Shown: positions 29,020 through 64,000, counted from the stretch's first letter. The stretch: DNA of 64,000 nt from Pseudonocardia sp. (GCA_035540535.1 DATLGI010000138.1:6924-70923); one strand, 5' to 3'. Numbers and translations are program-made. Notes: generated by a model not told the origin, from the sequence alone.

Positions 29020-29178
29020 GCACAGATCGCGTTCTCGGTCAAGGGGCCGGGGTGTCCGACTTTGGGACGGGTCGTGCCCCACGACGTCCGCATACCGTGA
29101 CCAGTATTCCGCCTCCCGCCGACCGGCGCAGGAGACCGACGTGATCAAGAGCAATCGATGCGCACAGAAGGTAGGGCC

Positions 29179-36501: not shown

Positions 36502-36789
36502 GCGACGGGCGGATCCTGCTGACGGTGATCTCGCCGAGGCGCAGCTCGCCGAGTCACGGTGGTCGGTTGACTGCTCCGGTGCTGGTCAGAGCCGCTCGAG
36601 GTCGCGCCGTGGAACGGTGAGCCGCAGCATGCCGGCAACCCGGACGGGCCGGTCAGCCGCTTGGCACTTCGGGCGCGAAGGTGCCGGGCAGCCTGCGCCG
36701 GGGCTCGGCCAGCGTGAACCGTACGGGAACTGTCGGTGCTCGTCCCTACGCTGTGCTGGCGAGCCCGACCTGGCGCTGAAGGGTTGCTG

Positions 36790-38217: not shown

Positions 38218-38807
38218 GGACCCCGGAGGAGCACGCCGTCGCGAGCGCGATCATCGACCTGATGCGCGGCGTCGTCTACCGCGAGTCGCGGGAGGACGCC
38301 TGGAACACCGTGAACCGCCACGGCGCCGCTGTTCGGGATCACTTCGGCACCATCGGCGTCGATGTCGTCATCGACGACGCGGAGGGATACGCCTACCTGC
38401 GCAGCCAGGAGGAGAGCGAAGCTGCCGAGCCCCTGCCGCGGCTGGTCAGGCGGCGCAGCCTCACCTACCACGTCAGCCTCCTGCTCGTGCTGTTGCGCAA
38501 GCGACTCGTGGAGTTCGAGACCACCGGCAGCGAGGGCAAGCTCGTGCTGAGCCGGGACCAGATCGTCGAGATGCTGCGCGTGTTCCTGGCCGACTCCACG
38601 AACGAGGCCCGGGTGATCGATCGGGTCGACACCACTCTCAAGCAGGTGGCCGAGCTCGGCTTCCTCCGGCAGCTGCGTCGACAGCAGGATCAGTGGGAGG
38701 TACGGCGAATCCTGAAGGCGTACGTCGACGCGCAGCTGCTCGCGGACTACGCCGGCAAGCTCCGGGAGTACGCCGACGCCGTCCGCGGGGGGACGACCGA
38801 TGGGTGA
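38214..38807 (+). CDS. jetB: Wadjet JetB (DUF4194, MksE/EptB-like subunit)
   Basis: ATG at 38214 overlaps the jetA stop (ATGA). It is 197 aa and acidic. Position and size match JetB. Confidence 0.7.
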
Positions 38808-41800: not shown

Positions 41801-42204
41801 AGCGCCACCGTGACACCGACGAGGAGTGGGAGCACTACCGCGACTCCGACGGCAAGTCCGGCGGCCAGAAGGAGAAGCTCGCCTACACCATCCTGGCGGC
41901 CTCCTTGGCCTATCAGTTCGGCCTGGAGTGGGGCGTCGAGCGGTCACGGGACTTCCGGTTCGCTGTGATCGACGAGGCGTTCGGGCGTGGATCGGACGTG
42001 TCGACACGTTATGCCCTCGAACTGTTCGCCAAGCTCGGCCTACAACTGCTGATCGTCACGCCGCTGCAGAAGGTGCACGTGATCGAGTCCTACGTCCGAG
42101 CGATCGGTTTCGTCGACAACCCCACGGGGAGCTACTCGCGGCTCCAGTCGCTGACCATCGAGGAGTTCCACGCCCGTCGGGCCGGCATGGCCCCCGACGG
42201 ATGA
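38800..42204 (+). CDS. jetC: Wadjet JetC (SMC-like ATPase, MksB/EptC)
   Basis: ORF 38800..42204 has Walker [10 protein letters not shown], a long Arg/Glu/Ala/Leu-rich central region, the ABC signature [11 protein letters not shown] and Walker [14 protein letters not shown]. Confidence 0.9.
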
Positions 42205-43352
42205 CCTGCGCCTGGACGACGTCGACGGAGCTGGCGCGGAGGGTCCGCCGACGCTGGGACGACGGGACGCTGCTCTCCGCTCTGGCCGCCGGCGACCCCT
42301 TCCCGGGGCTGGATCTTCCCGTCCGCGGCCCCCATCCGTCGGAGATCGGCGATGACTTGGCCGCGGTGCAGCGCTGGGTCGCCGAGCTGGAGGCGGGCAG
42401 CCGCAACGGCCGGAGCTACGAGCTCGTCCACGCCACCATCGGTGGGCGGCACTTCGGGCGCAACCGGATCCCGGCCCGCGCCCGCGTCACAACCTATGAG
42501 CAGGCATGGCAACTGTTGGGCGTCGCCGCCCATGTGGCCGCGTACCGGCGAATTCTGGATCTGAGTGCATCGGTTCCTGCGGTTCGTTCCTGGGCAGCCG
42601 CCTGCCCGCTACGAGCGCTCGACGTCGCGGACGAGTGGGAGCCGCTCGTCGCCGCCTACTCCTGGTTGGACGCGGCCCGCGGCTCTGGCCGCTACTTGCG
42701 CGAGATCACCGCCCCGGGGGTGGACACGAAGTTCGTCGAGCGGCACCGGTCGGTGCTGAGCCACCTGCTCGGCACCGACCGCTCCGCCAGGGGGTTCCTT
42801 TCCGCGCTGGGACTGCGAGTGAAGCCGGAGACGGTGCGGCTGCGGTTCGATCCCGCCGTATTGGGCATGCCGGCCGCCCTCACCGAGGCGGAGCTGCGGG
42901 TCGAGGAGCTGGCCGCGCTCCCGGCCGCCGTCCGCACGGCAGCGATCATCGAGAATGAGACTACGTACCTCACGGTCCCGGTCCCAAGCAGTGGTGTGGT
43001 CATGTGGGGGAAGGGCTTCGAGGTGAGCCGGGCCGGTGCGTTGCCCTGGCTCCGCGATGCCGACGTGTACTACTGGGGTGACCTCGACACCCACGGTTTC
43101 GCGATCCTCGACCGGCTGCGCGCCTGGCTGCCCTGCTCCGAATCGTTCCTGATGGACCGGGGGACGCTGCTGGCCCACCGCGACCGCTGGGTCCGCGAGG
43201 GATCACCGACGTCGGCAAGCCTCGACCGGCTCAACCCGGACGAGGCCGCCCTGTACCGCGACCTCGTCGCCGACCAACTCGGTGACGGCGTCCGCCTGGA
43301 GCAGGAGCGCATCGACTGGGCGTGGGCGAGTAAACGCATTCCCTACGAATGA
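42201..43352 (+). CDS. jetD: Wadjet JetD (DUF3322 + Toprim-like DUF2220 nuclease subunit, MksG/EptD)
   Basis: ATG at 42201 overlaps the jetC stop (ATGA). It has C-terminal Toprim-like IIENETTYL ... [16 protein letters not shown]. Confidence 0.85.
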
Positions 43353-50719: not shown

Positions 50720-52246
50720 TCATGCCGAGAACTGTTTGAGCAGCTCCCTGCGCATGATCTTGCCGGTGGACGTCTTGGGCAGATCGTCGACGAAGCGAAC
50801 GAGTCGGGGCCGCTTGTAAGCGGCCAGCGATCGGCCGGCGAACTCGATGAGCTCCTCGTCGGTGGCGGTCGCCCCTGGTGCGAGGACGACGTAGGCGCAG
50901 GCCAGCTCGCCCTTCACCGGGTCCGGCACCGGCCCGGCCGCGACCATCGCCACCGCCGGGTGCGCGGCCAGCACGCGCTCGATCTCGGCGGGGTAGACGT
51001 TGTAGCCGGCACTGTTGATCATGTCCTTGCGCCGGTCGACTACGAAGACGTGCCCGGTGTCGGACATCGTCGCGATGTCGCCGGTGTGCAGCCAGCCGTC
51101 CGGCTCGATCGTCTCCGCGGTGGCCTCGGGCCGATTGTGGTAGCCGAGCATCACCAGCGGGCCGCGCACCATCAGCTCGCCGGGCTCGCCGTACGGGGCG
51201 TCGCGGGTGACGTCGGCGAGATCGGCGATGCGCACCTGCAGCCCCGGCAGCGACACTCCGATCGACCCGAGCACGGGCGGGGCGTGCAGCGCGTGCGTGG
51301 TGCCCAGGCCGGCGATCTCGGTCATCCCCCACAGCTCGATCAGCGGGGCTCCGGAGCGCTCCTGCCAGCGCTGCATGGTCGAGACCGGCATCGTCTGCCC
51401 GCCGACGGTGCACCGGGTGAGGCTCGACAGGTCGGTCCCGGGCAGCGACGGGTCGGCCAGCATTGTCGCGTACATCGCCGGGACGCCCTCGAACATCGTC
51501 GCCCGGTGCTCCGCGATCAGCGTGAGCGCCTCGGCCGGGGCGAAGCGCTCCATCAGCACCACGGTGCCACCGACCATGAAGATCGAGTTGATGACGACGT
51601 TGCCGTAGACATGTGGCGCCGGCAGCGCGGTGACGACGACGTCGGCGGCGGTGCGGCCGTGCATCGTCGCGGTGTGGGCACAGTTGAGCAGCACCGCGCG
51701 GTGCGACTGCACGGCGCCCTTCGGGTGGCCGGTGGTCCCGGACGTGTAGCCGATCGTCGACGGCCCCGCCGGGTCGATCTGCACCTCGGGCACGGAGCCG
51801 TCCGAGCCCAGCAGCTCGGTGAACCCGACCGCTCCCTTCGGCGCGTCACCGAAGGCGACGACCGCGCACGGCCCGGGCAGGTCGCGGGCCAACTCGACCA
51901 CGCCCGCGGCCTGCTGGGCGCTGGTGAACACCGCGGCCGACCTGCAGTCGCGCAGCACGTACGCCAGTTCCTCGGGGGTGAGCATGACGTTGACCGGGTT
52001 GACGACCGCCCCGGCTTTGAGCGCGCCGTGGTAGGCGATGACCCATTCCCAGCGGTTCTGCGTGTACAGCGACACCGGCTGTCCCGGCCGAATCCCGCGG
52101 GCCGCCAGCCCGGCGGCGACGCGGTCGCTCTCCACGTCCAGCTCGCGGAAGGTCAGGGTACGGGCGGCGGTGACCAGCGCGGGCTTGTCCCCGAACCGCC
52201 GTGCGGCCGCCGGCAGGATCCCGGCAGGCGAGACGACGTCGTCCAT
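50720..52246 (-). CDS. AMP-dependent acyl-CoA synthetase/ligase
   Basis: Internal Met of ORF 50720..52285, preceded by a GAGGAGG RBS. It has YTSGTTGHPKG and GWLHTGD motifs. Confidence 0.88.
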   Translation of the reverse strand: MDDVVSPAGILPAAARRFGDKPALVTAARTLTFRELDVESDRVAAGLAARGIRPGQPVSLYTQNRWEWVIAYHGALKAGAVVNPVNVMLTPEELAYVLRDCRSAAVFTSAQQAAGVVELARDLPGPCAVVAFGDAPKGAVGFTELLGSDGSVPEVQIDPAGPSTIGYTSGTTGHPKGAVQSHRAVLLNCAHTATMHGRTAADVVVTALPAPHVYGNVVINSIFMVGGTVVLMERFAPAEALTLIAEHRATMFEGVPAMYATMLADPSLPGTDLSSLTRCTVGGQTMPVSTMQRWQERSGAPLIELWGMTEIAGLGTTHALHAPPVLGSIGVSLPGLQVRIADLADVTRDAPYGEPGELMVRGPLVMLGYHNRPEATAETIEPDGWLHTGDIATMSDTGHVFVVDRRKDMINSAGYNVYPAEIERVLAAHPAVAMVAAGPVPDPVKGELACAYVVLAPGATATDEELIEFAGRSLAAYKRPRLVRFVDDLPKTSTGKIMRRELLKQFSA

Positions 52247-52466
52247 GTGCACCTCCTCGACGCCTCCGCAGTGTCCGGTCCCCACGACGCGACGCCGCTA
52301 TCCAGCACGGACAAGGCGGTCGGGCAGTTTTGTCCGCACCGTCCATCGGCGAGAGTGGAAAGCCACGGCACTGTGACGTCCGCAACGCCGTGCGCCGGGG
52401 CCGTCCACCGCACTCCCTGGTGATCACGCCGGTAGGAGCCACGACCCCAGTTCAAGGAGGAACCTG

Positions 52467-52886
52467 ATGGCCGAAGTGCTGGCCGAGGGCTACAACGTCT
52501 TCGACACCGCCAAGTCCCCCAGCGGCACGATCAAGTACCTGTCCTCGCCCGCGGACGTGATCGGGCTGATCAAGTCCGGCAAGCTGAAGGACCACATCCT
52601 GCTCGTCCGCGGGGGGACGACGACGTTCCTCGCCCCGGCACTGTCGATGGGTGCGATCGGGGTGATCACGATGTCGGGCGCGCCCGAGTCGCACCTCGGG
52701 ATCCTGTCGCGGGAGTTCCAGACCCCGTGCGTGATGACGGCCTACCTGACGAGCAGCGACTCCCGCTACGAGGTCGGCAAGACCGGCGACAGCCACTTCG
52801 AAGAGATCGCGAAGGCCCTCGACGGCCGCCGGGTCCGGCTCGACTGCACCGACCACGAGGTCGGGCGCGTCGTCGCCGACGACTGA
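52467..52886 (+). CDS. stand-alone PEP-utilising-enzyme mobile (swivel/phosphohistidine) domain protein
   Basis: ORF 52467..52886 has ILLVRGGTTTFLAPALSMGAIGVITMSGAPESHLGILSREFQTPCVM, which matches the swivel-domain pattern with the conserved His (codon at 52692-52694). Confidence 0.7.
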   Translation: MAEVLAEGYNVFDTAKSPSGTIKYLSSPADVIGLIKSGKLKDHILLVRGGTTTFLAPALSMGAIGVITMSGAPESHLGILSREFQTPCVMTAYLTSSDSRYEVGKTGDSHFEEIAKALDGRRVRLDCTDHEVGRVVADD

Positions 52887-52920
52887 CACCCATCCCACGA
52901 GGCACGGACAAGGAGCAGAC

Positions 52921-54354
52921 GTGACGACGACCGAGGGCAAGCGCGCCACCTACAAGCAGCGGTACGAGCAGGGTGACGACGGTCTGCGCTTCCAGGAGCT
53001 GACCTACACCGGCAACTTCGTCGGGATGGAGCCCGTCACGGACGGGATCAAGGGCGACCGGATGATGCGCGAGCGCGCCAAGAGCGGTGTGCTCGAGAAG
53101 GTGTCGAAGGAGGACGTCCTCCGCGACCAGTTCACGATCGACGAGCTCAACGACCTCAACAACTACCTGGCCTGGAACATCTGGGACGTGCTGGTCATGC
53201 GCGCCACCGAGGGCGTGAGCGGCATGATCCCCCGCCAGGAGTACGAGATCCTGGCCTTCATGCACGAGTTCTACCGCTGGCCGGAGATCCTGCGCATGGC
53301 CACCGACGAGGTCGGCGGCGGCCAGGGAGTCCTGGACATCGGCGCCACCGCCCGCCGGGAGATCGGCACCAAGGTCAACGCGGTGCACGACTGGTGCATC
53401 GGCGCCGTCGGGTTCGGCATGGGCCGCTGCGGCCTGCTCGCGCTGGAGGTGATCGGCCCGGACGATTACGTCGAGGAGTCCAACGAGATCCTCAAGTTCA
53501 TGCAGCGGATCCTGTGGGGCAAGCGCCAGGACGGCTACATCCTCAACTCCCAGGACAACTACCGCTGCCGCATCCATGAGGCCGACTTCCTCGAGCAGAT
53601 CACCGCGCAGCTCGAGCCGCTGGAAGCCGACAGCCCCAAGCACGGCGCGTTCACCCAGTTCAACGCCGCCGCGGAGCTGCTCTCGTTCCTCGACCACTAC
53701 GACTGCCGGCTCGGCCTCGGCGACACGGGGCCGTACGAGCTGCCGAACGGGCAGCTGCTGATCCTGCGCGACCTCTTCGTCAACGAGGAGGTGTTCCACT
53801 GGAGCGACGTCTGCGACGACGAGGGCCTGCCGCACTGCTACACCCTCGCGCTGACGATCGACCCGGAGAAGATGGCGCTGGCCGAGATCCGGGTGAACGA
53901 CATCTCCACCACCTTCACCCGGCCGAAGAACTACATCGAGGCCATCACCGGCGGTGCGGTGTTCGTCCGGGAGAAGTGGAACACCCCGATGGGCGAGGTG
54001 TACCCGGTCGCGATCGACGATTTGGGCCCGCACCTGGAGCGGGTGCAGAACGCGACGCTGAAGCTCTACGCGAAGACGGCCCGGATGAACCGGCGCGACC
54101 TCATCTGGAACGGCCAGTACGTCTACTACGTCGACATGATCCTCCCGCACCTGCGGCTGGCCGGCGCGTACGAGAAGGCGTGCACGGACTACCAGCTCTG
54201 GGAGGTCGACCAGCGCGTCGCCAACTACTACTACGACATCACCAAGCGCGGCTTCGCCCAGGAGACCGTGCCGCAGAAGATCTTCTCCGGCGCGGGTTAC
54301 CTGCCCTTCTCCGACAACGCCGACCGCCGCCGCTCGAAGTACCGCTGGCTGTAG
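52921..54354 (+). CDS. conserved-looking protein of unknown function (477 aa)
   Basis: ORF 52921..54354 has a GTG start with a GGAG RBS. Its composition is clearly coding (rich in W/Y/F/N/K/I, unlike shadow ORFs). I recognise no motif. Confidence 0.7.
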   Translation: MTTTEGKRATYKQRYEQGDDGLRFQELTYTGNFVGMEPVTDGIKGDRMMRERAKSGVLEKVSKEDVLRDQFTIDELNDLNNYLAWNIWDVLVMRATEGVSGMIPRQEYEILAFMHEFYRWPEILRMATDEVGGGQGVLDIGATARREIGTKVNAVHDWCIGAVGFGMGRCGLLALEVIGPDDYVEESNEILKFMQRILWGKRQDGYILNSQDNYRCRIHEADFLEQITAQLEPLEADSPKHGAFTQFNAAAELLSFLDHYDCRLGLGDTGPYELPNGQLLILRDLFVNEEVFHWSDVCDDEGLPHCYTLALTIDPEKMALAEIRVNDISTTFTRPKNYIEAITGGAVFVREKWNTPMGEVYPVAIDDLGPHLERVQNATLKLYAKTARMNRRDLIWNGQYVYYVDMILPHLRLAGAYEKACTDYQLWEVDQRVANYYYDITKRGFAQETVPQKIFSGAGYLPFSDNADRRRSKYRWL

Positions 54355-54422
54355 ACGCCGGACACCGACGGGCGGCGCGGCACCTCGCCGCGCCGCCCGT
54401 CCTCGTGCAGGAGGACTCCACC

Positions 54423-55043
54423 GTGACAGCGCTCTCCCTGAGCAGGACCGACTACGACGTGCTCAACGCCGTGGTCGTCAAGAAGATGGCCACCGCCGAC
54501 GCGGTGGTGGCGGCCTCGGGTGTGGACGCCGCGCAGGTCTCCGAGATCCTCGCCGCGCTCGAGGGCCGGGGCCTCCTCGTCGTCGCAGGCGACTCGGCGC
54601 TGCCCACGGACGAGGCTGAGCCGGTGCTGATGGAGGTGGCGGCCACCCGGTACTCAGGCGTCCGCGAGGACGCCGACATCGCCCGGCTCGTGGACCGCTT
54701 CGAGACGACCAACGCGCAGTTCCTCACGACGATGTCGTCCTGGCAGCAGATCGACAGCGGCGGCCGCAAGGTGGCCAACGACCACTCCGACCCCGAGTAC
54801 GACGGAAAGGTCATCGACCGGCTGAACAAGCTGGTGGCTCGCCTGACCCCGCTGTTGGACGCACTCGCCGGGCACGACGCGCGGTTCGGCCGCTACCCCG
54901 AACGCTTCGCCATCGCGCTGGCCGCCGTCGACGCCGGGGACCACGACCTGGTGTCGTCCCCGGTCCGCGACTCGGTGCACAACATCTGGTTCGAGTTCCA
55001 CGAGGATCTGCTACGGACCCTCGGCAAGGTCCGGACCGAATGA
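54423..55043 (+). CDS. protein of unknown function with N-terminal winged-helix-like segment (206 aa)
   Basis: GTG at 54423 in the frame of ORF 53976..55043, with an AGGAGG RBS upstream. The stop overlaps the next start (ATGA). Confidence 0.6.
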   Translation: MTALSLSRTDYDVLNAVVVKKMATADAVVAASGVDAAQVSEILAALEGRGLLVVAGDSALPTDEAEPVLMEVAATRYSGVREDADIARLVDRFETTNAQFLTTMSSWQQIDSGGRKVANDHSDPEYDGKVIDRLNKLVARLTPLLDALAGHDARFGRYPERFAIALAAVDAGDHDLVSSPVRDSVHNIWFEFHEDLLRTLGKVRTE

Positions 55044-57559
55044 GCAGCCCGAGCACGACGACGCCTGGCCCGGGCGACGTCGCCGATGGGGTGTTCACCC
55101 GCAGGTTCGCCGAGGCCGATCCCGCAGACGTGGGGTGGCTCGGTGGCAAGGGCGCGGGCCTGGCCCGCATGACTCAGCAGGGCCTGCGCGTGCCGCCCGG
55201 CTACGTCATCGGGACCGACGCCTGCCGTCGCTACCTCGCGGAGCGGGCGCTCCCCGCGGGACTCGACGACGAGGTGTTCGCCCGGCTGTCCGAGCTGGAG
55301 CGGGCCGCCGGCAAGACCTTCGGCGGCGGTCCGGTGCCGCTGCTGCTCTCGGTGCGGTCCGGCGCGCCGATCTCCATGCCCGGGATGATGGACACCATCC
55401 TCAACCTCGGACTGAATCGCACCGCTGCGATCGCGCTCGGGGAGGCGACGGGGGACGCGCGGTTCGTCGCCGACCTCGTCACCCGCTTCCACGCGATGTA
55501 CGCCGAGACCGTGCTGGACGCAACGGATCCCGGCGAGGGCATCGGCGAGCTGGTCGCGCAGGTCGGCGCGGGTGACGACCCGGGCGCCGTCTACGACCGA
55601 ATCTGGGACGCCTGCCAGCGGGCGCTGGCCGACGACACCGGCGATTCGGTGCCCGACGACCCACGGGAGCAGCTGCTGGGCGCGGTGGAGGCGGTGTTCC
55701 GCTCCTGGAACACCCGCCGAGCCCGCACCTACCGCGACCACCACAAGATCCCGCACGACCTCGGGACCGCCGTGGTCGTGCAGTCCATGGTGTTCGGCAA
55801 CCTCTCGGCGGACTCGGGCTCCGGTGTGGTGTTCACCCGCAACCCGGCGACCGGGGAGCCGGGCCTGTTCGGCGAGTACCTCGCGCACAGCCAGGGTGAG
55901 GACGTCGTCGCCGGGACCCGCACGCCCGATCCTGTCACCGAGGCCCTCGCGCCCGCGGTACTCGACGAGCTGCGCGTGACCTGCGCCGATCTCGAGCGAA
56001 GCCAGGGCGACGTCCTCGACATCGAGTTCACCGTCGAGCGGTCCGCGCTGTACTTCCTGCAGGTGCGCAGCGCAAAGCGCACGCCCGAAGCGGCGGTGCG
56101 AATCGCGGCCGACTTCCTCGCCGAGGGCAGTGTCGCGCCGTCGAAGGCGATACGGAACGTCTCGGCGGCCCAGGTGCGACAGGTGCAGCGGCCCGGGTTC
56201 GACCCCGACGAGGTCGAGAAGGCGCGGGCCGGCGGGCGACTGCTCACGAGGGGGATCGGAGCCTGCCCGGGTCAGGTCGGCGGCGCGCTGGTGCTCGACC
56301 CGGACCGGGCGAAGGCGGCCGCTGACGCCGGTCGGGACGTCATCCTCGCCCGTCCGGTCACGAGCCCCGCCGACCTGCACGGAATGATCGCCTCGCGCGG
56401 TATCGTCACGGCCACCGGTGGGTCGACGAGCCACGCCGCCGTCGTCGCGCGGGCGCTCGGCACAGCCTGCGTGGTCGGCGCCGGTGAGATCCGCGTCGAC
56501 GAGGCCGCTCGCGTGCTGACCGTCGGCGGGCGGACCCTGGCCGAGGGCGACGAGGTGTCCCTGGACGGAGCGACCGGCGAGCTGTTCGCCGGGCGCTTCG
56601 CGACGTCGACGCCGGCGGCCGCGACGGGGGCTCTGGCGGCGCTGCTGGGCATCGCCTCCCGCGCCAGCGCTTGCTCAGTGCTCAGCCGCGTCACCCTGCC
56701 CGGCGACGTCGAGCCCGCCCGCGAGGCCGGAGCCGACGGGCTGGTGACCGCGGTGGACGACGTACTGGCCGCCACCGGTCACCTCGACGGCCTCGTGGCG
56801 GGTCTGCTCGGCGCGAGCGCGGACGGGTTCGACGGTATCGCGGCAATGGTGGAGGCCGAGTTCACGCCGCTGCTGGCGGTCGCCGGCGACCTGGAGGTGG
56901 GCGTCCGGGCGATCGATCTCGTCGCCGACGAGGCGCGCGAGCTGCTCCAGCAGACGGCCATGACGACCCGGCACCCCGAGCTGTCGGTCCCACTGGGTCG
57001 CCCGGAGCTGGTGCGGGCACAGCTGGAGGGGCTGGCCCGGGCCGTGCGGGAGTCCGGGGGGCGCGCCCGCGTCCACCTCGCCCTGCGACACGTCAGCGAC
57101 CCGGCCGAGGCCCGCGCACTGCGCGCGCTCGCCGGCGAGGTCGGGTCAGCGGTCTCCATCGGGACTTATCTGACCAGCCCGCGGGCAGCCCACGGCGCCG
57201 TCGACATCGCGGCGGCCAGCGACGTCGTGTGGCTCGAGGTGCGCACGCTGCAGGCGGCGATGTTCGGCATCCCCGCGCGGCAGCTGCTCACCGCCGAACC
57301 GCTCGACGGCTACCTGCGGCGCGGGCTGCTCGGCTGCGACCCGCGCACCACGCTCGACCCCTCGGTGCAGCGCCTGCTTGCCGATGTCGCGGCGGCGGCC
57401 GACACCGCCGGGCGCCGGGTCGGGATGCGGCTGTCCGGGGAGGTGTCCGAGGCGGTCGCCGCGCAGCTGTACGCCCTGGGCTTCCGCCGCTTCGCCGTCG
57501 ACGCTGCGGAGACGCGCCCGGTGGTCCTCGCGCTCGGTAAAGCGGCTCTCGCGGCCTGA
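55040..57559 (+). CDS. pyruvate,phosphate dikinase-like protein (ATP-grasp + phosphohistidine domain; degenerate C-terminal domain)
   Basis: ORF 55040..57559 has GGKGAGLARM, LLLSVRSGAPISMPGMMDTILNLGLN, GEYLAHSQGEDVVAGTRTP and GGSTSHAAVVARALG. The C-terminal ~300 aa lack the PPDK catalytic motifs. Confidence 0.8.
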   Translation: MSSPSTTTPGPGDVADGVFTRRFAEADPADVGWLGGKGAGLARMTQQGLRVPPGYVIGTDACRRYLAERALPAGLDDEVFARLSELERAAGKTFGGGPVPLLLSVRSGAPISMPGMMDTILNLGLNRTAAIALGEATGDARFVADLVTRFHAMYAETVLDATDPGEGIGELVAQVGAGDDPGAVYDRIWDACQRALADDTGDSVPDDPREQLLGAVEAVFRSWNTRRARTYRDHHKIPHDLGTAVVVQSMVFGNLSADSGSGVVFTRNPATGEPGLFGEYLAHSQGEDVVAGTRTPDPVTEALAPAVLDELRVTCADLERSQGDVLDIEFTVERSALYFLQVRSAKRTPEAAVRIAADFLAEGSVAPSKAIRNVSAAQVRQVQRPGFDPDEVEKARAGGRLLTRGIGACPGQVGGALVLDPDRAKAAADAGRDVILARPVTSPADLHGMIASRGIVTATGGSTSHAAVVARALGTACVVGAGEIRVDEAARVLTVGGRTLAEGDEVSLDGATGELFAGRFATSTPAAATGALAALLGIASRASACSVLSRVTLPGDVEPAREAGADGLVTAVDDVLAATGHLDGLVAGLLGASADGFDGIAAMVEAEFTPLLAVAGDLEVGVRAIDLVADEARELLQQTAMTTRHPELSVPLGRPELVRAQLEGLARAVRESGGRARVHLALRHVSDPAEARALRALAGEVGSAVSIGTYLTSPRAAHGAVDIAAASDVVWLEVRTLQAAMFGIPARQLLTAEPLDGYLRRGLLGCDPRTTLDPSVQRLLADVAAAADTAGRRVGMRLSGEVSEAVAAQLYALGFRRFAVDAAETRPVVLALGKAALAA

Positions 57560-57615
57560 CACTGTGGCTGCGGGCGGGCCGCCGGGACGTTCGCGGCGAT
57601 GGTTGGACCGCCAGG

Positions 57616-58341
57616 TCACACCAGCAGGCCCTCCCGCAGGCGGGCGAGCTCGTGGTCGGTGATCCCGCGCGAGTGGGCCCAGCCGGCAGCGCCCCCGTGG
57701 CGGGAGTCGAGCGCGGCGAGGAAGCCGGTGATGGTGTGCTCCTCGGCGTCGTAGACCTCGGGCGGCACCGTCGCCATGTGGGCGCTGTAGTGCGGCCAAC
57801 CGCGGAAGCGTTCGACGATCCGCGCCATGGCGGGTCCGCTGCGCAGGTAGTCGGCCACGATGTCGTCGTCGTCCACGCCGAGCAGGCGCAGCAGCAGCGC
57901 GGTCACCAGGCCGGTCCGGTCCTTGCCGGCCGCGCAGTGCACGAGCACCGGCCGGCCGGCCAGCGCGCACACGATCCGCACGACCGTCGCGACTTGCGAG
58001 GTCGGCGACCCGACGTGCATGAGGTAGAACGCCAAGCTCTGCTCGCGCGGCGGCAGGTCGCTCGCGGGGGCCTCGGACAGCGGTGCGTTCAGGTAGCAGA
58101 CCGGCGTGGCCGCGAGCGGCCCGCGCCCCTGCTCGACGGCCTCCGGGCCGCGGCGCAGGTCGACGACGAGCTCCAACCCGAGCTTCTCGACGAGGTAGGC
58201 GACGTCGTCGGCGGTCAACGCCTGCAGGGTGTCGCTGCGGAACAGCGCGCCGGACCGGACCTGCAGGTCCGGTCCGGCGCGGAGACCACCGAGATCACGG
58301 AAGTTGAAGGCGCCGCGGAGCCCGCTCACGGAATCGGTCAC
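57616..58341 (-). CDS. tyrosine-protein-phosphatase-like protein (Y_phosphatase3 family, CX5R)
   Basis: Lies in the frame of ORF 57616..58734 with GTG 58341 after a GAGGAG RBS (alternative GTG at 58398). It has NFRDLGG and the HCAAGKDRTG active-site loop. Confidence 0.8.
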   Translation of the reverse strand: MTDSVSGLRGAFNFRDLGGLRAGPDLQVRSGALFRSDTLQALTADDVAYLVEKLGLELVVDLRRGPEAVEQGRGPLAATPVCYLNAPLSEAPASDLPPREQSLAFYLMHVGSPTSQVATVVRIVCALAGRPVLVHCAAGKDRTGLVTALLLRLLGVDDDDIVADYLRSGPAMARIVERFRGWPHYSAHMATVPPEVYDAEEHTITGFLAALDSRHGGAAGWAHSRGITDHELARLREGLLV

Positions 58342-58411
58342 GGGAGCTCCTCGCTGGCGCTCGTCGCCCGTGACCGGGTCGCTGCGCTGATTGGTGACCT
58401 CGCAAGCTCGG

Positions 58412-59383
58412 TCACGGGGCGCACAGCCGGCGGATGGCGGCCAGCAACTCGTCATCCGCGGTGGTTCGCGCGCCGGCGGCGACGCTCGTGGTGCCGGTGA
58501 CTCGAGCGGCTGCCGCGCGCCGGCGATCGCGCCGGACGGCGGCTGCCCGGGCGACGACGTCATCACCCGTGCCGTCGGACCCGTCGCACCCGCAGCCGCA
58601 TGCCGACGCCGGCGCGCCCTGCTGGTCGACGGCGGCAACCGGTACGGCGCACGCGCCGGTGGCGGGAAGGGCGGCGGCGTCCCCCAGCAGGTACGGGGCG
58701 ATCTCCTGCGGCCAGAGCGCGACGAACTCGGCACCGGCGGCGGTGAGCTCCTCCACGGAGTGCATGCCCCAGGCCACGCCGATGACCCGGATCCCGACCT
58801 CGAGCGCGTCCCGCACGTCGCCCGCGGTGTCGGTCACCAGCACGGTGCTGGAGCCGTCGAGGTCCGCCGGCCGGCCGGCCTCGTCGTAGTCCGCACTGCA
58901 GCGGCGGCCGAAGCCGCTGCCGGCGTCGGCGAGGAAGGCGCGCATGGCCGTGCGCTTGTCCGGGGCTGCGTCGCCGCCGAAGACGTGCGCGAAGCAGAAC
59001 GCGATCCCGTTCGACTCCAGGACGCGGCGGAGCACCTGCGTCGCGTTGGACGACATCACCGCGAGCGTGCAGTCGGCAGCGAGACGGCGCACGACGTCGC
59101 CCACGCCGGGGACCAGCGGCGGCGTGTACTCCTCGCGCAACAGGCGCAGGAACGCGTCCTTCACCTCGCCGGCCTGCGCCTCGTCGCGGCACAGCTTCGC
59201 GATCGAGGCGTAGACGTTGCCCTGGAACAGGTCGAAGTACTGTTCGGGGCGATCGACGCCGAGCCCGAACCGCTTGTTGATCTTCTCGAACACCTCCCAC
59301 GACGCCACGCGTGTCTGGACGAGGGTGCCGTCGAGGTCGAAGATCACTGCCCGGACCGGTGACCGGCCGGTGCCGGCGGTCAT
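58412..59383 (-). CDS. HAD family hydrolase with ~90-aa C-terminal extension
   Basis: Internal Met of ORF 58412..59530 overlaps the upstream stop (ATGA). It has the FDLDGTLV motif I. The tail is low-complexity Ala/Gly/Cys-rich and ends ADDELLAAIRRLCAP. Confidence 0.8.
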   Translation of the reverse strand: MTAGTGRSPVRAVIFDLDGTLVQTRVASWEVFEKINKRFGLGVDRPEQYFDLFQGNVYASIAKLCRDEAQAGEVKDAFLRLLREEYTPPLVPGVGDVVRRLAADCTLAVMSSNATQVLRRVLESNGIAFCFAHVFGGDAAPDKRTAMRAFLADAGSGFGRRCSADYDEAGRPADLDGSSTVLVTDTAGDVRDALEVGIRVIGVAWGMHSVEELTAAGAEFVALWPQEIAPYLLGDAAALPATGACAVPVAAVDQQGAPASACGCGCDGSDGTGDDVVARAAAVRRDRRRAAAARVTGTTSVAAGARTTADDELLAAIRRLCAP

Positions 59384-60384
59384 GCGCGTGCGGCGGCGTG
59401 CACCCGGTCGTAGGCGGTGCCGAGCTCGCCCAGGCCGATGAAGTCCATGCACTCGCCGTGGCCGACCTGCCCGTTCACCGTCCAGCGCAGCAGGCAGTTG
59501 TGCCCCACCGTCCCCGGCCAGGCCTGCCACGGGAACGTGGTGAGCGCAGTGCCCTCGAGCTCCCAGGTCCGGTCCGCCGAGTCCGTGACCGTCAGCTGGA
59601 TCGCCTCCGGGTAGAAGTCATGGCGGTATGTGGTGCCCCCGCCCGCCTTGAGGCCGTAGACCTTGCCGTGGTCGAGCACGTAGCCGTGGGTCATCGTCTG
59701 GGTCGAGGGTGCGTCCGGTCCGCCGTCGGTGGAGAAGTCGCAGATGACGTGGATCGCCAGGTCGGGGGAGACGTGGGCGTGCTGCCACGACAGCCGTGAG
59801 GTCTGGCGCTCGGCGCGGACCCCCCAGCTGTGGTCCATCGTCGACACGCAGTCGATCGGGGTTGTCGCGCCGCGCAGGACGATCTCGCCCTCGAAGCGGC
59901 CCGTCTGGTCGAAGTGCCCCGCGTAGGCGTGGCCCCAGGTCTTGTCCATGTCCCGCCCGGCGGCCATCGGGTCCATCTCCGGGTCGTTGATGTCGTAGGG
60001 CTCCATCAGCGCCGAGTAGCGGAAGTGCAGCTCCAGGCCGGCGGCGGGATCGGAGTAGTCGACGTCCCACACCTTGTTGGGCTCGGCGCATCGGACCTTC
60101 AGCCCGTTCGCCAGCGCGTAGTCGAGCAGGTTCGACGGCTGCGGCACCACGAGGTGCTGCCACGCGTCCCAGTAGTCCGCGGCCCACGGCATGGTCACCC
60201 GCCGGGAGTTGACCGACACCGTCGAGCCGACCACTCCGATCGGCTCGCGGAACAGTCCGTAGACACCGATGTTCATCGGCCGGTCGGCGTCCTGGCCGGC
60301 GTACAGGCCGAAGTAGTTGGTCTCGGCCCAGAGCGGGTCGTCTGTCGTCGGGGGGTGGAACTGCGCGTCCTCGGGACGGATCAC
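59380..60384 (-). CDS. hypothetical protein (possibly AttH/CrtC-like beta-rich fold)
   Basis: Lies in the frame of ORF 59380..60504 with GTG 60384 after a GAGGAGG RBS. The composition is coding-like (W/Y/H/D rich). The family assignment is uncertain. Confidence 0.6.
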   Translation of the reverse strand: MIRPEDAQFHPPTTDDPLWAETNYFGLYAGQDADRPMNIGVYGLFREPIGVVGSTVSVNSRRVTMPWAADYWDAWQHLVVPQPSNLLDYALANGLKVRCAEPNKVWDVDYSDPAAGLELHFRYSALMEPYDINDPEMDPMAAGRDMDKTWGHAYAGHFDQTGRFEGEIVLRGATTPIDCVSTMDHSWGVRAERQTSRLSWQHAHVSPDLAIHVICDFSTDGGPDAPSTQTMTHGYVLDHGKVYGLKAGGGTTYRHDFYPEAIQLTVTDSADRTWELEGTALTTFPWQAWPGTVGHNCLLRWTVNGQVGHGECMDFIGLGELGTAYDRVHAAARA

Positions 60385-60571
60385 CGGTGAACCTCCTCGT
60401 GGCGGGTTGCGGCCTCGCCCTCTCGTCCCCGCGAGCGTGTCCCCTGCGCGCGGCGGGAGCCACTGTGCCCGGGGACAACGAGGCAGGCAGCCGTTGTCCT
60501 TCACGGATAACGTCGTCCGATTCTGCCCGCCCTACTGTCCGGTGCAGCGAACCGAGAAGAGGTGACCGGGC

Positions 60572-60865
60572 ATGCAGCTGGCCAAGGTGCTCGGCCAGGT
60601 CGTCTCGACGGTCAAGGAACCCGGCCTGGACCGGTTCACGCTGCTCCTGGTGCAGGAGGCCTCCGGGGCTGACCCCGAGCGGACGAGCGGTGCCGCATAC
60701 GTCGCGGTCGACCTCGTCGGCGCCGGCGTCGGTGAGGTGGTTCTCGTCGCCACGGGCGGCGCGGCCCGGGTCGCGGCCGGCGCCGACGCCCCGACCGACC
60801 GAGCCGTCGTCGCCATCGCCGACACGGTGGTGCGGTCCGGCTCGGTCGCCTACCGCAAGTCATGA
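60572..60865 (+). CDS. bacterial microcompartment vertex protein (EutN/CcmL family, BMV)
   Basis: ORF 60572..60865 reads [15 protein letters not shown] ... [23 protein letters not shown] ... [11 protein letters not shown]. Confidence 0.9.
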
Positions 60866-61251
60866 CCACCGCAGCGGCTCTGCCCACTCATTCCGCCGTC
60901 GGACGAGACCACCTGGAGGACGACATGGCTCCCACCACAGCAGGCGCGAACGGGGGGACCACCATGCGCGGTGCCCTCGGCCTGATCGAGACGAAGGGCC
61001 TCGTCGGGGCCATCGAGGCCGCGGACGCGATGGTGAAGGCGGCCAACGTGCAGGTCGTCGGGCACCGTGAGATCGGTGGCGGCCTCGTGACGGTGATGGT
61101 GCGAGGCGACGTCGGGGCCGTCAAGGCCGCGACCGACGCCGGCGCGGTGGCCGCGGGCAAGGCCGGCGAGGTCGTGTCGGTACACGTCATCCCGCGCCCG
61201 CACGACGAGACCGAGGGCATCCTCGCCGTCCTCACCCGCCCGAAGGGCTGA
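60862..61251 (+). CDS. BMC-H shell protein (PduA/EutM/CcmK-type BMC domain) with N-terminal extension
   Basis: ORF 60862..61251 overlaps the BMV stop (ATGA). It has [30 protein letters not shown] ... [19 protein letters not shown] ... SVHVIPRPH. Confidence 0.92.
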
Positions 61252-61336
61252 ACCGATACCGCCCCGTCCGGGACGGCGTCGCGGCGCCGACCTCCGGGCG
61301 GGCACCCGGCCACCGGAGTCCGAACCGAGGTGAGGA

Positions 61337-62737
61337 ATGACCACACTCGTCGAACCAGGGCTGGATGCCGACCTCGCCGCGCTCGCCGACGTGCGAGCCA
61401 AGGCTCGTGCCGCCCGCCGAGCCTTCGAGGCGCTGGAAGGCGCGGACCAGGAGACGCTGGACCGTTACGTCCGCGCGATGGCGCTGGCCGGCACCAAGGC
61501 CGCCGAGGAGCTCGCCCGGCTGGCCGTGGACGAGACCGGATACGGCGTCTACGAGCACAAGATCTACAAGAACCGGTACAACACGGGTTTCGTCGCCAGG
61601 TGGATGCTGGAGCGCCGCGCCGTCGGTGTGCTCTGGGTGGACGACGCCGCTCGCGTCACCGCCGTCGGCACCCCGATGGGAGTGATCGCCGGCATCATCC
61701 CGGTCACCAACCCGACGTCGACCGCACTGTTCAAGAGCCTGGCCGCCGTGAAGTCGGGCAACGCGATCGTGCACGCCCCGCATCCACGGGCGGCTCGGTG
61801 CACGCTCCGAACGGCGGAGATCATGGCCGACGCCCTGGTGTCCGCCGGTGCCCCGGAGGGCCTGGTGTCCTGTCTGGTCGAGCCGTCGTTGGCGTCGACG
61901 CAGGAGCTGATGCGCAGGCCGGAGGTCGCACTGGTGCTCGCCACGGGCGGGCCCGGCATGGTGCGCGCGGCGTACTCGAGCGGGAAGCCGACCATCGCGG
62001 TCGGGGCGGGAAACGTGCCCGCCTACGTCGGCGCCAGCGTTCCGGACGCGGCCGAGGCCGCCGAAATGATCATCACGTCGAAGTCGTTCGACAACGGAAC
62101 GGCGTGTGTGGCCGAGCAGTCCGTCGTCGTCGTCGACGGCGTGGCGCCGGCCTTCCTCGCCGCGTTCGAGGCGAAGGGCGCGTACTGCCTCAACGCACCG
62201 CAGCAGGCGGCGCTCGTCCGGGTGCTGTTCGACGAGCGGGGCGCGCTGCGTCCGGCGTCGGTCGGGCAGACCGCGGTGCGGCTGGCCGAGCTCGCCGGTT
62301 TCACCGTGCCCTCGACGACGCGGGTCCTGGCAGCGGAGCTCGACGCCGTCGGCCTGGAGACGCCGCTCTCACGGGAGATCCTCGGCCCGGTCCTGTCCGT
62401 GTACCGCGTCCGGGATGCGGCGGCCGGTCTCGCGCGCTGCCGCGAGGTCCTGGCGCTGGACGGCGAAGGCCACACCGCCGCCGTGCACGCCGGCGACCCC
62501 GAGGAGATCGCACCGTTCGGCGCCCTGCCCGCCGGCCGGATCGTGATCAACACGCCGGCTCTGTTCGGCGGCATGGGCTACTCCACCGAGGTCGACCCCT
62601 CGTTCCAGCTCGGCACCGGCACGTGGAGCGGCTCGATCTGCTCGGACAACGTCACGCCGCTGCACCTGATCAACATCAAGCGGATCGCCCATGAGGTGCG
62701 GCCCTGGCGAACCGTCTACGACCCGGTGGAGCTCTAG
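61337..62737 (+). CDS. acylating (CoA-dependent) aldehyde dehydrogenase, EutE/PduP-like
   Basis: ORF 61337..62737 has IIPVTNPTST and the FDNGTACVAEQS catalytic Cys region. Confidence 0.88.
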   Translation: MTTLVEPGLDADLAALADVRAKARAARRAFEALEGADQETLDRYVRAMALAGTKAAEELARLAVDETGYGVYEHKIYKNRYNTGFVARWMLERRAVGVLWVDDAARVTAVGTPMGVIAGIIPVTNPTSTALFKSLAAVKSGNAIVHAPHPRAARCTLRTAEIMADALVSAGAPEGLVSCLVEPSLASTQELMRRPEVALVLATGGPGMVRAAYSSGKPTIAVGAGNVPAYVGASVPDAAEAAEMIITSKSFDNGTACVAEQSVVVVDGVAPAFLAAFEAKGAYCLNAPQQAALVRVLFDERGALRPASVGQTAVRLAELAGFTVPSTTRVLAAELDAVGLETPLSREILGPVLSVYRVRDAAAGLARCREVLALDGEGHTAAVHAGDPEEIAPFGALPAGRIVINTPALFGGMGYSTEVDPSFQLGTGTWSGSICSDNVTPLHLINIKRIAHEVRPWRTVYDPVEL

Positions 62738-63559
62738 GTGATGGCGCTGGCCTGCGACCCGCGGGAGCTGCTCGCGGCGGCGTCCGCCCGGATGGGTGCC
62801 GAGCCCGTGCTGCCGGCCGGGCCGCTGCACGATGTCCGCGTCGGAGTCGACCTGGGTACCGCGAGCTGCGTCCTCGTCGTCCTCGACGCCGACGGCGCGC
62901 CCGTATGGCTCGACGCGCACCCGTCCGGGGCGTTGCGCGACGGCGTGGTCGTCGATTTCGCCCGCGCCATCGACACGGTGCGTCGGCTGCGCGAGGCCGC
63001 GGAGACCGCGCTCGGCGTCGAGCTGCGGCGCACCGCGACCGCCTACCCGCCGTGCATCCCGGCGGAGGACGCCCGGGCCTGCACCTACGTCTGCGAGTCG
63101 GCGGGCTTCGCCGACGTCGTCCTCGTCGACGAGGTGACCGCCGCGCAGCGGACACTCGAGGTGGGCGACGGCGTCGTCGTCGACGTCGGCGGTGGTTCGA
63201 CCGGCGTCGGGGTGTTCCGCGACGGTCGCCTCGTTCAGCTCGACGACCGCCCCGGCGGCGGGCACCACCTCGATCTCGTCCTGGCTGGGGCGCTGCGCAT
63301 CCCGCTGGACGAGGCCGAACCCTGGAAGCGCGCACATCCCGCTGACGCGTTGCCCATCCTGGTGCCCGGCCTGCAACGCATCGCCGAGAACGTGCGTGCC
63401 CTGACCCGAGGCGCCGACGACCTGCCGCTGCACCTCGCCGGCGGCGCCCTCATGATCGCCGGCGCGGGTGACGTGCTGGCCTCCTACCTGGAGCGACCTG
63501 TCGTGACCTATCCGCACGCCCTGCTGATCACCCCCCTCGGCATCGCGAGGTCGGCATGA
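62738..63559 (+). CDS. eutJ: EutJ-like actin/Hsp70-fold protein
   Basis: ORF 62738..63559 has VGVDLGTAS and VVDVGGGSTGV phosphate-binding motifs. Confidence 0.85.
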   Translation: MMALACDPRELLAAASARMGAEPVLPAGPLHDVRVGVDLGTASCVLVVLDADGAPVWLDAHPSGALRDGVVVDFARAIDTVRRLREAAETALGVELRRTATAYPPCIPAEDARACTYVCESAGFADVVLVDEVTAAQRTLEVGDGVVVDVGGGSTGVGVFRDGRLVQLDDRPGGGHHLDLVLAGALRIPLDEAEPWKRAHPADALPILVPGLQRIAENVRALTRGADDLPLHLAGGALMIAGAGDVLASYLERPVVTYPHALLITPLGIARSA

Positions 63560-64000
63560 GCGAGCCCACGCTGCGCACCTACGCCTTCGTCGACCGGATG
63601 CAGCCGCAGTGTGCCGCGCACATCGCGGCCACCAGCCCCGGAGACGTGCCCCTCGCGGGAATGGCCGAGCTGTACATCGAGATGGCACCCGGCAACGAGG
63701 TGTTCCGTGCCGCCGACATCGCCCTCAAGGCGGCGGGCGTGCGCCCGGCGCTGCAGATCATCGAGCGCGAGTTCGGCCTGCTGGAGATCCACTCCGAGCA
63801 GCAGGCCGAGGTGCTGGCCTCCGGACAGGCCATCCTCGACGAGCTGGGGATGACCGAGGCGGACCGCCTGAAGCCGGTGATCGCGTCCACGCAGTTCATC
63901 ACGAACGTCCACCCCTACCAGGCCCAGCTGCTCAACAAGTGGCGCAAGGGGTCGATGCTCATGCCGGGGCAGAGCTTGTTCGTGATGGAGGTGGCGCCGG
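63556..64000 (+). CDS. BMC-domain-like shell protein (probable tandem/BMC-T type); 3' end lies outside the window
   Basis: My own translation from ATG 63556, which overlaps the eutJ stop (ATGA): MSEPTLRTYAFVDRMQPQCAAHIA...LYIEMAPGNEVFRAADIALKAAGV...FGLLEIHSEQQAEVLASGQAIL. The frame is open to the window end, so it is absent from the ORF track. Confidence 0.55.
   Translation, partial: MSEPTLRTYAFVDRMQPQCAAHIAATSPGDVPLAGMAELYIEMAPGNEVFRAADIALKAAGVRPALQIIEREFGLLEIHSEQQAEVLASGQAILDELGMTEADRLKPVIASTQFITNVHPYQAQLLNKWRKGSMLMPGQSLFVMEVAP

Follow-up and report, generated by a model that had tools for sequence, protein, structure and literature searches.

Conserved phosphoryl-transfer genes upstream of a MIC1 bacterial microcompartment locus in Pseudonocardia suggest a candidate for its missing signature chemistry

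We analysed a 64,000-nt stretch of DNA from Pseudonocardia sp. (GCA_035540535.1 DATLGI010000138.1:6924-70923), called the window here, whose 3' end holds a bacterial microcompartment (BMC) locus; this report concerns that locus and the phosphoryl-transfer genes upstream of it. Five consecutive genes on the plus strand occupy positions 60572-64000. They encode a vertex pentamer (BMC-P), a shell hexamer (BMC-H), a CoA-acylating aldehyde dehydrogenase (AldDH), EutJ and a tandem-domain shell protein (BMC-T). An earlier interpretation made from the DNA alone (the sequence-only reading) had proposed this set, with the fifth gene as a further BMC-like protein. Its identification of an actinobacterial metabolosome with a minimal shell set, here in a Pseudonocardia metagenome-assembled genome (MAG), was also supported.

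The shell-protein assignments passed hidden Markov model searches, and PF00936 and PF03319 genes lie clustered with enzymes, as in a BMC locus of any type. BMC-P (60572-60865) matched PF03319 over its full length (E 3.6e-24). BMC-H (60925-61251; PF00936, E 5.3e-28) shows the IPRPH and D..MVK interface motifs. The longest open reading frame (ORF) of this gene starts at 60862, within an ATGA (60862-60865) that had been taken as an overlap with BMC-P; the ATGA exists, but it is probably not the start of BMC-H. An in-frame stop lies just 5' of the conserved BMC-H ATG in seven relatives (L012, L046, L054, L062, L060, L055 and L056). This ATG corresponds to window position 60925, is preceded by GGAGGA and is the start in the gene calls on the source contig. 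For these reasons we take BMC-H to be 108 aa long and drop the ~35-aa N-terminal extension once ascribed to it as an ORF artefact; the actual tail 5' of the BMC domain is ~14 aa. AldDH (61337-62737; PF00171) contains the catalytic-Cys motif FDNGTACVAEQ in its translation, and its top NCBIfam matches were all CoA-acylating (AdhE N-domain, 9e-145; TIGR02518, 2e-138), all under the equivalog cut-offs. The alignment of orthologues showed no N- or C-terminal extension. The EutJ-family actin/Hsp70-fold protein (62741-63559, or from 62738) matched NF011660 (2.4e-84, 282.9 bits versus a cut-off of 182). The fifth gene (63556-64000), cut by the window edge, encodes a double-stacking, CcmP/CsoS1D-like BMC-T; it matched NF053796 (CcmP, E 2.3e-51), below the cut-off. 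The same protein in locus L003 carries precomputed PF27545 (CsoS1D_N) and PF00936 (BMC) matches, and relatives have a BMC-T of ~209 aa, with a full-length copy at 12127-12756 of L045. The ATGA overlap of eutJ and BMC-T (63556-63559) is real and also occurs in L045, the closest relative.

The source contig (ENA ERZ27256763 k141_102662) stops ~175 nt past the window end, and an identical AldDH was found on five further contigs, all short. For comparison, 80 loci with AldDH relatives were taken from species-representative genomes (loci are cited by number; L001 is the contig of the window). Genes in the relative loci were called by third-position GC and clustered, and presence was scored by tblastn; clusters C21 and C26 were discarded as antisense ORFs. 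Upstream counts come from the 55 relatives whose upstream flank spans 9 kb or more, and downstream counts from 49 loci with sufficient downstream flank. The relatives span Pseudonocardiales, Nakamurella, Acidimicrobiales (Acidimicrobiia) and Betaproteobacteria, that is, three phyla. After BMC-T, 47 of the 49 loci encode a malate/lactate-dehydrogenase-family (MDH-like) protein, and all 49 have a Zn-dependent alcohol dehydrogenase (Zn-ADH) downstream. A GAF/PucR regulator follows these two genes, and a second BMC-H is often next, on the opposite strand. The window thus holds the first half of the shell/core operon, of which the MDH-like, Zn-ADH and regulator genes are the continuation in relatives. 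The MDH-like protein has a conserved N-terminal domain of ~45 aa and a Pro/Ala-rich linker. A Pfam search with this domain returned no match; the 2021 BMC catalogue describes it as EutQ/cupin-like and BMC-specific.

The sequence-only reading had compared the locus to the Rhodococcus/Mycobacterium (RMM) type. By orthology to catalogued loci, and with the RMM genes missing, its type is instead MIC1 (Metabolosome with Incomplete Core 1; Axen et al., 2014; Sutter et al., 2021). Supplementary trees of the 2021 catalogue label shell proteins as bmcType=MIC1 in six organisms: P. thermophila DSM 43832, Actinomycetospora cinnamomea DSM 45771, Amycolatopsis M39, Nakamurella DSM 44233, Rhodococcus ACS1 and Methylibium T29. 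The first two are represented by orthologous loci in our comparison (L024 and L037, respectively). The window and L024 are 86% identical in AldDH, 93% in BMC-T, 96% in BMC-H and 84% in BMC-P, and through these identities the shell proteins correspond to the catalogue groups H_mocha_MIC1, P_purpleBlue_mic1 and Tdp_denim_MIC1. The BMC-T of the P. thermophila locus itself carries the label Tdp_denim_MIC1; the labelled tags are SAMN05443637_12580 (second BMC-H) and _12587 (BMC-T), and the adjoining DUF7064 gene is _12592. An acylating AldDH is present without a phosphotransacylase (PTAC), PduL/Pta being absent among the conserved genes. The MIC1 accessory genes for a HAD hydrolase, Y_phosphatase3 and EutJ are in the window, and those for the MDH-like protein and Zn-ADH are in the relatives as counted above. 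Since the window is orthologous to MIC1 loci and has a matching gene set, it is a new MAG instance of the catalogued type. The possibility that this was an already classified locus with unrelated neighbours had been raised with the RMM proposal; the first part holds and the second does not. Some genomes carry duplicated MIC1 parts or two separate MIC1 loci (L070, L068, L012/L014). P. endophytica has two MIC1 loci on a single contig (L012/L014), and in Pseudonocardia sp. CNS-139 (L070) the genes for PTP, BMC-P, AldDH and Zn-ADH are each present a second time.

The phosphatases and the operon of a pyruvate phosphate dikinase-like (PPDK-like) protein upstream of the shell genes had been regarded as unrelated neighbours. 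The comparison does not support this view, as these genes are linked to the shell genes across the three phyla. The HAD hydrolase was encoded upstream in 55 of the 55 loci, the DUF7064 protein in 54 and the PPDK-like protein in 52; U477 and C8 were each found in 49, His139 in 48 and Y_phosphatase3 in 26. The PPDK-like gene lies on the strand opposite to AldDH in 13 of its 52 loci, indicating that the linkage outlived rearrangement. Shell proteins aside, none in the locus is better conserved than U477 and His139: between Pseudonocardia and Acidimicrobiia, identity is 70-73% for U477, 70-78% for U477 and His139 taken together and 63-65% for AldDH. The accessible portions of the published MIC1 descriptions name no signature enzyme and make no mention of PPDK-like, PEP-utilizers, U477 or DUF7064 genes; their conservation with the MIC1 locus is shown here. 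Given the linkage of the upstream genes to the shell genes, the signature enzyme is probably within the window, contrary to the earlier statement, and positions 52467-60384 hold the best candidates for it.

Four of these genes are on the plus strand. His139 (52467-52886; PF00391, E 1.6e-7) is a stand-alone PEP-utilizers (phosphohistidine swivel) protein of 139 aa with a conserved ESHLGILSRE motif. U477 (52921-54354), a protein of 477 aa, had no match in Pfam, NCBIfam or PDB sequences, and an exhaustive search found 257 representatives among 1.84 billion proteins. AF2 gave a mediocre model (pLDDT 63) from a shallow alignment, and a Foldseek search with this model returned noise only (all E > 1), matching no solved fold. 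C8 (54423-55043; 206 aa) has a marginal TrmB/MarR-type winged-helix match (PF01978, 26.6 bits versus a cut-off of 25.6), and its stop overlaps the start of the PPDK-like gene by 4 nt. The PPDK-like protein (55040-57559; NF004531, 511 bits versus a cut-off of 456) combines ATP-grasp and phosphohistidine domains with a degenerate C-terminal domain. Its residues 22-568 aligned to pyruvate phosphate dikinase (1kbl/9pzl, E 1.7e-129) and keep TSHAAVVAR. The C-terminal 270 aa aligned weakly, and VWLEVRTLQ stands opposite the PPDK motif FSFGTNDLT. The intact phosphoenolpyruvate (PEP)/pyruvate TIM barrel of a bona fide PPDK was not found in this protein, which scored 557 bits against TIGR01828 (cut-off 843). 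It looks like a phosphoryl donor without a pyruvate/PEP site. A housekeeping PPDK that is a neighbour by chance was ruled out by the degenerate C-terminal domain and the cross-phylum linkage.

Gene fusions connect these proteins. Distant U477 homologues bear an N-terminal PEP-utilizers domain. In L087 and L088, parts resembling His139, U477 and C8 follow one another in a single polypeptide, in the order of the three window genes; C8 matched the C-terminal ~200 aa of these fused proteins (29-30% identity, E 9e-17), and a PPDK_N-His gene adjoins the fused gene in both. The split arrangement recurs in L089 and L092, and in L090 two His-U477 genes adjoin two DUF7064 genes. On account of the fusions, His139, U477 and C8 may act as one enzyme with the PPDK-like protein, a putative split dikinase. 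U477 is proposed as its substrate or phosphoryl-acceptor subunit from the gene fusions and its position. L088 (SRR25394098_75671) is a metagenome contig whose fused His-U477-C8 gene lies amid a P450/ferredoxin/ferredoxin-reductase set and two APH-type kinases. It also holds Y_phosphatase3, Zn-ADH, Aldedh and HpcH aldolase genes and is a non-BMC catabolic cluster joining kinases and phosphatases to alcohol and aldehyde oxidation. In a betaproteobacterial group (L055, L056 and L059, from Methylibium, Rubrivivax and Piscinibacter), U477 was undetected by tblastn, with the PPDK-like, HAD and shell genes kept; the U477 remnant of L059 looks degraded, and the module may be undergoing pseudogenisation in this group.

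The DUF7064/DUF7065 protein (59380-60384, minus strand; PF23212, PF23213) is a candidate phosphoester C-O lyase or isomerase, and its stop overlaps the start of the HAD gene by 4 nt. Searches of PDB sequences with the single sequence and with an alignment profile found no match. Its AF2 model (pLDDT 92.4, pTM 0.90) was compared with PDB structures by Foldseek. The best folds were those of 25-phosphosteroid lyase (25-PSL; 9g4c/9fzn/9g2i, E 1.7e-13 to 2.4e-12, TM 0.64-0.66), with a probability of 1.00 over ~365 columns, so that the modelled protein appears to share this fold. AttH (2ich) and kievitone hydratase (7a0t) were next (E ~3e-8, TM 0.51-0.63), and fungal Diels-Alderases were also matched. 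Among the characterised members of the fold superfamily, 25-PSL, kievitone hydratase and CrtC-type hydratases act on dimethyl-carbinol or isopropylidene ends of isoprenoid chains. As these enzymes act on such ends, small tertiary or allylic alcohols are attractive candidate substrates; a vicinal diol giving an aldehyde by phosphate elimination is equally possible. In Sterolibacterium, 25-PSL strips phosphate from a kinase-made tertiary phosphoester, a reaction called 'ATP-dependent dehydration' (PMC8449060, PMC11061730).

The HAD-IA phosphatase (58412-59383, minus strand; PF13419, PF00702) has an intact DxDGT motif, and its nearest relatives are phosphoglycolate-phosphatase-like. Phosphonoacetaldehyde hydrolase was rejected as its identity, as no PhnX model scored. 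Shell-linked HAD proteins continue past the catalytic domain with a low-complexity, variable linker of 60-150 aa and a terminal amphipathic motif, which in the window is the encapsulation-peptide-like helix DDELLAAIRRLCAP. The motif was present in 42 of 47 shell-linked orthologues versus 11 of 1011 other predicted proteins. The HAD proteins of operons without shell genes (see below) are 229-234 aa long and end directly after the catalytic domain, without a tail. A terminal amphipathic helix behind a poorly conserved linker, confined to a BMC context, is the signature of an encapsulation peptide; the HAD phosphatase is therefore predicted to be cargo and is most likely carried in the shell. Within the C-terminal third of the protein (58412-58700), the otherwise variable linker retains, in most lineages, a CGCGC-type cluster of Cys residues together with a basic patch, RRxRR; metal binding or shell contact are possibilities for them. 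The accessory phosphatase Y_phosphatase3 (PTP-type; 57616-58341, minus strand; PF13350, E 1.2e-51) is also next to the fused His-U477 gene of L088. Its position in Rhodococcus sp. T7 (L096, 11955-12758) is taken by a SurE-family phosphatase, a non-orthologous replacement, and a second phosphatase activity thus appears to be required, no matter from which family it comes. An intergenic region at 60385-60571 separates the shell/core operon from the divergent DUF7064-HAD-PTP operon.

The same enzymes also occur without a shell. In Paraburkholderia terrae (L094/L095) and in a mobile-element locus (L098/L099) they are arranged in a single operon that has no shell gene within 10 kb. The genes run PucR regulator, DUF7064, HAD, His, U477, C8, PPDK-like, (porin), Zn-ADH and ALDH, and an AMP-forming ligase gene comes after ALDH in L094/L095 and L099. 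The DUF7064, HAD, His and U477 proteins of these operons are 50-72% identical to those of the window. Their ALDH is unrelated in type, being 26-27% identical to the acylating AldDH, and its motifs suggest an ordinary hydrolytic enzyme. These operons lack both the MDH-like enzyme and EutJ, which occurs only where the pathway has a shell. Integrase and transposase genes flank L098 and hint at a mobile catabolic island. In two Rubrobacteraceae MAGs (L100, 1960-3969, and L101), HAD and Zn-ADH are fused into a protein of 669 aa with a low-complexity linker, and this fusion ties the product of the phosphatase to an alcohol dehydrogenase. The fusion gene adjoins DUF7064 and is then followed by an orthologue of an AMP-forming acyl-CoA synthetase (AcsL) that the window encodes at 50720-52285 (minus strand; PF00501, PF13193). 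Its presence beside the fusion draws the synthetase into the pathway. Orthologues of AcsL in shell-less operons are 52% (Paraburkholderia terrae, L094) and 63% (Rubrobacteraceae, L100) identical to it. Beside a MIC1 locus, AcsL was found only in L001, L045, L019 and L042, and it is a probable peripheral member of the pathway.

From these data we infer a direction of phosphoryl flow and an order for its first three steps. The split dikinase (PPDK-like protein, His139, U477 and C8) would phosphorylate a hydroxyl-bearing substrate using ATP, and the DUF7064 protein would then cleave or rearrange the C-O-P bond of the phosphoester. HAD, brought into the shell by its C-terminal peptide, would hydrolyse the resulting phosphomonoester to an alcohol. 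Zn-ADH would turn the alcohol into an aldehyde inside the compartment, and AldDH would convert the aldehyde to acyl-CoA, a task that would fall to ALDH plus ligase in the shell-less versions. NADH may be re-oxidised to NAD+ by the MDH-like enzyme, whose N-terminal domain is BMC-specific. The upstream genes belong to the MIC1 system; that they supply its signature chemistry, with a phosphoester made by the split dikinase and processed by the DUF7064 protein yielding a HAD-released alcohol oxidised to acyl-CoA, is in our judgement evenly poised between right and wrong. We agree with the sequence-only reading that the substrate is open. A narrower proposal is tentative and rather doubtful: MIC1 would house an ATP-driven, oxygen- and cobalamin-free route in which a new split dikinase, with U477 as its substrate subunit, acts on a small, possibly tertiary or allylic alcohol, followed by a 25-PSL-like enzyme that rearranges or eliminates the phosphate and by an encapsulated HAD that releases a primary alcohol, to be oxidised through a toxic aldehyde to acyl-CoA. 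Purely as conjecture, 2-methyl-3-buten-2-ol or a related C4-C5 tertiary alcohol could pass through prenol and prenal to 3-methylcrotonyl-CoA.

Several points weigh against the proposed pathway. The dikinase genes are absent within 10 kb in three actinobacterial loci (L049, L066 and L070), and the three betaproteobacterial loci have apparently lost or degraded U477 yet keep the shell. U477 has no recognisable fold, its role as substrate subunit coming from fusions and position only, and the marginal winged-helix match of C8 fits a regulatory function. The DUF7064 protein is only 17-18% identical to 25-PSL, within a superfamily that includes hydratases and Diels-Alderases, and the profile search of PDB sequences was empty. 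The 25-hydroxysteroid kinase resembles putative phosphotransferase-family proteins (<=46% identity) and forms ADP; reports on it mention no dikinase chemistry. Should ADH and AldDH both yield NADH, the cofactor balance within the shell would hinge on the putative role of the MDH-like enzyme. A search of the literature library found no biochemical or expression data for MIC1 loci, including those of Rhodococcus and Pseudonocardia.

The main alternative, which we consider unlikely, is that the PPDK-like protein, His139, U477 and C8 form a regulatory phosphorelay (kinase, phosphocarrier, sensor and winged-helix output, reset by Y_phosphatase3) over the catabolic genes, the aldehyde arising from the DUF7064 protein and/or HAD alone or from an enzyme encoded elsewhere. 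PEP-utilizers domains do serve phosphorelays, for example in the phosphotransferase system (PTS). The TrmB/MarR-type match of C8, C-terminal in the fused proteins, the unrelated catabolic genes (P450/ferredoxin, APH kinases) next to the module in L088 and the missing or degraded U477 of some loci would all suit such a relay, and Axen et al. assumed that the aldehyde-forming enzyme is encoded elsewhere. However, the conservation of U477 and His139 across phyla, above that of AldDH, is unusual for sensors, and the winged-helix match is marginal. Moreover, a dedicated PucR/GAF regulator is already encoded, and in the shell-less versions the module lies within the enzyme operon, between HAD and ADH.

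It is also quite improbable that the DUF7064 protein is a CrtC/kievitone-type hydratase or isomerase acting on a C=C bond, with the dikinase and phosphatases working on another intermediate, for example by trapping or releasing a phosphorylated alcohol. AttH and kievitone hydratase are significant fold matches too, and one source calls an orthologue 'hydroxyneurosporene synthase'; but the match to 25-PSL is stronger, with an E-value five orders of magnitude lower and a higher TM-score, phosphoryl-transfer enzymes (a dikinase and two phosphatases) abound in the locus, and DUF7064 is translationally coupled to the HAD phosphatase. We give next to no credence to an RMM-type amino-alcohol BMC whose phospholyase and kinase lie beyond the window: acylating AldDH, EutJ and BMC-T(dp) are held in common, and in the AldDH phylogeny of the catalogue text MIC1 is nearest to MIC2, with RMM1 the next closest characterised type, but the orthologous loci are labelled MIC1, the RMM BMC-T(dp) proteins fall in another clade than those of MIC1/MIC2, and the 49 relatives have MDH-like, Zn-ADH and PucR genes downstream, with no aminotransferase-like phospholyase (PF00202), APH kinase (PF01636) or permease among them. 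Among the conserved genes of the 55 relatives we likewise found neither a PF00202 phospholyase nor an APH-type amino-alcohol kinase, and the conserved genes include no SDR amino-propanol dehydrogenase, amino-acid permease or GntR, the regulator being PucR/GAF. As read from the predicted genes, synteny has already refuted RMM membership.

Other features of the window lie further from the locus. An AcoR-like regulator (GAF, AAA-lid, HTH_8) is encoded at 27196-29298 (minus strand), divergent from an FMO/Baeyer-Villiger-type monooxygenase (29364-30695), and the ORF at 30733-31548 encodes a putative alpha/beta hydrolase. Homologues of this regulator lie directly downstream of the MIC1 locus in L016, L022, L028, L030 and L039, and in L022 and L028 a second Zn-ADH comes next. 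Positions 36736-43352 (plus strand) hold a complete Wadjet (JetABCD) anti-plasmid system, in which JetA matches DUF3375, JetB matches DUF4194/MksE, JetC is a 1134-aa SbcC-like ATPase and JetD has JetD_C and DUF3322.

Since 2014 MIC1 has stood in the lists as a metabolosome lacking a signature enzyme and a known substrate, with ~46 loci in the 2021 catalogue, and in the literature searched there was no paper on MIC1 function or on PPDK-like genes in BMC loci. Many further MIC1 loci were found here in soil Actinomycetota, Acidimicrobiia and Betaproteobacteria. The fixed set of phosphoryl-transfer genes, the shell-less versions and the lyase fold reduce the question of MIC1 function to a short list of enzyme assays. 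What this adds is a concrete, testable proposal for what the signature chemistry of MIC1 may be, along with the U477 family, which is rare, highly conserved among its MIC1-linked orthologues and predicted to work with a phosphohistidine domain. The two versions also offer a natural comparison of a cytosolic with an encapsulated pathway, in which the phosphatase gains a tail, ALDH is replaced by a CoA-acylating AldDH, and EutJ and the MDH-like enzyme are added.

Compared with known systems, the locus agrees with MIC1 in BMC-P, BMC-H, AldDH, MreB-like/EutJ and BMC-T(dp), in matching order, in the Ldh/Mdh-type dehydrogenase with an N-terminal extension, the Zn-ADH, the HAD hydrolase and the phosphatase, and in having no PTAC; the window shows no departure from the type. 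With the PPDK/PEP synthase family, which also has split or re-purposed members (for example rifampicin phosphotransferase), the PPDK-like protein shares intact ATP-grasp and swivelling phosphohistidine domains, the catalytic TSH motif included. The PEP/pyruvate-binding domain, in contrast, is degenerate here, and a second His domain and U477 appear to fill the role of the substrate domain. The steroid pathway of Sterolibacterium denitrificans has the 25-PSL fold that the DUF7064 model shares (E 1.7e-13), and its logic may match: an alcohol becomes a phosphoester, the C-O bond is broken, and a primary alcohol is oxidised through aldehyde and acid to a CoA ester. It differs in that its kinase forms ADP and is not dikinase-like, in that a molybdenum hydroxylase is used and not a HAD phosphatase, and in that it has no microcompartment, its substrate being much too large for a BMC pore. 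RMM1 is, like the present locus, an actinobacterial minimal-shell metabolosome with acylating AldDH, EutJ and BMC-T(dp), whereas its permease, SDR and GntR set is missing here and its BMC-T belongs to the other clade of the catalogue. In RMM1, the aldehyde is obtained from 1-amino-2-propanol through an ATP-dependent phosphorylated intermediate by a kinase and a phospho-lyase. These are an APH kinase and a pyridoxal phosphate (PLP)-dependent aminotransferase-like lyase; here a PPDK-type dikinase and the DUF7064 beta-barrel protein would take their places. The likeness to RMM1 survives only in the AldDH phylogeny and as a mechanistic parallel, in which unrelated enzymes would phosphorylate a substrate and then break a C-O/N bond.

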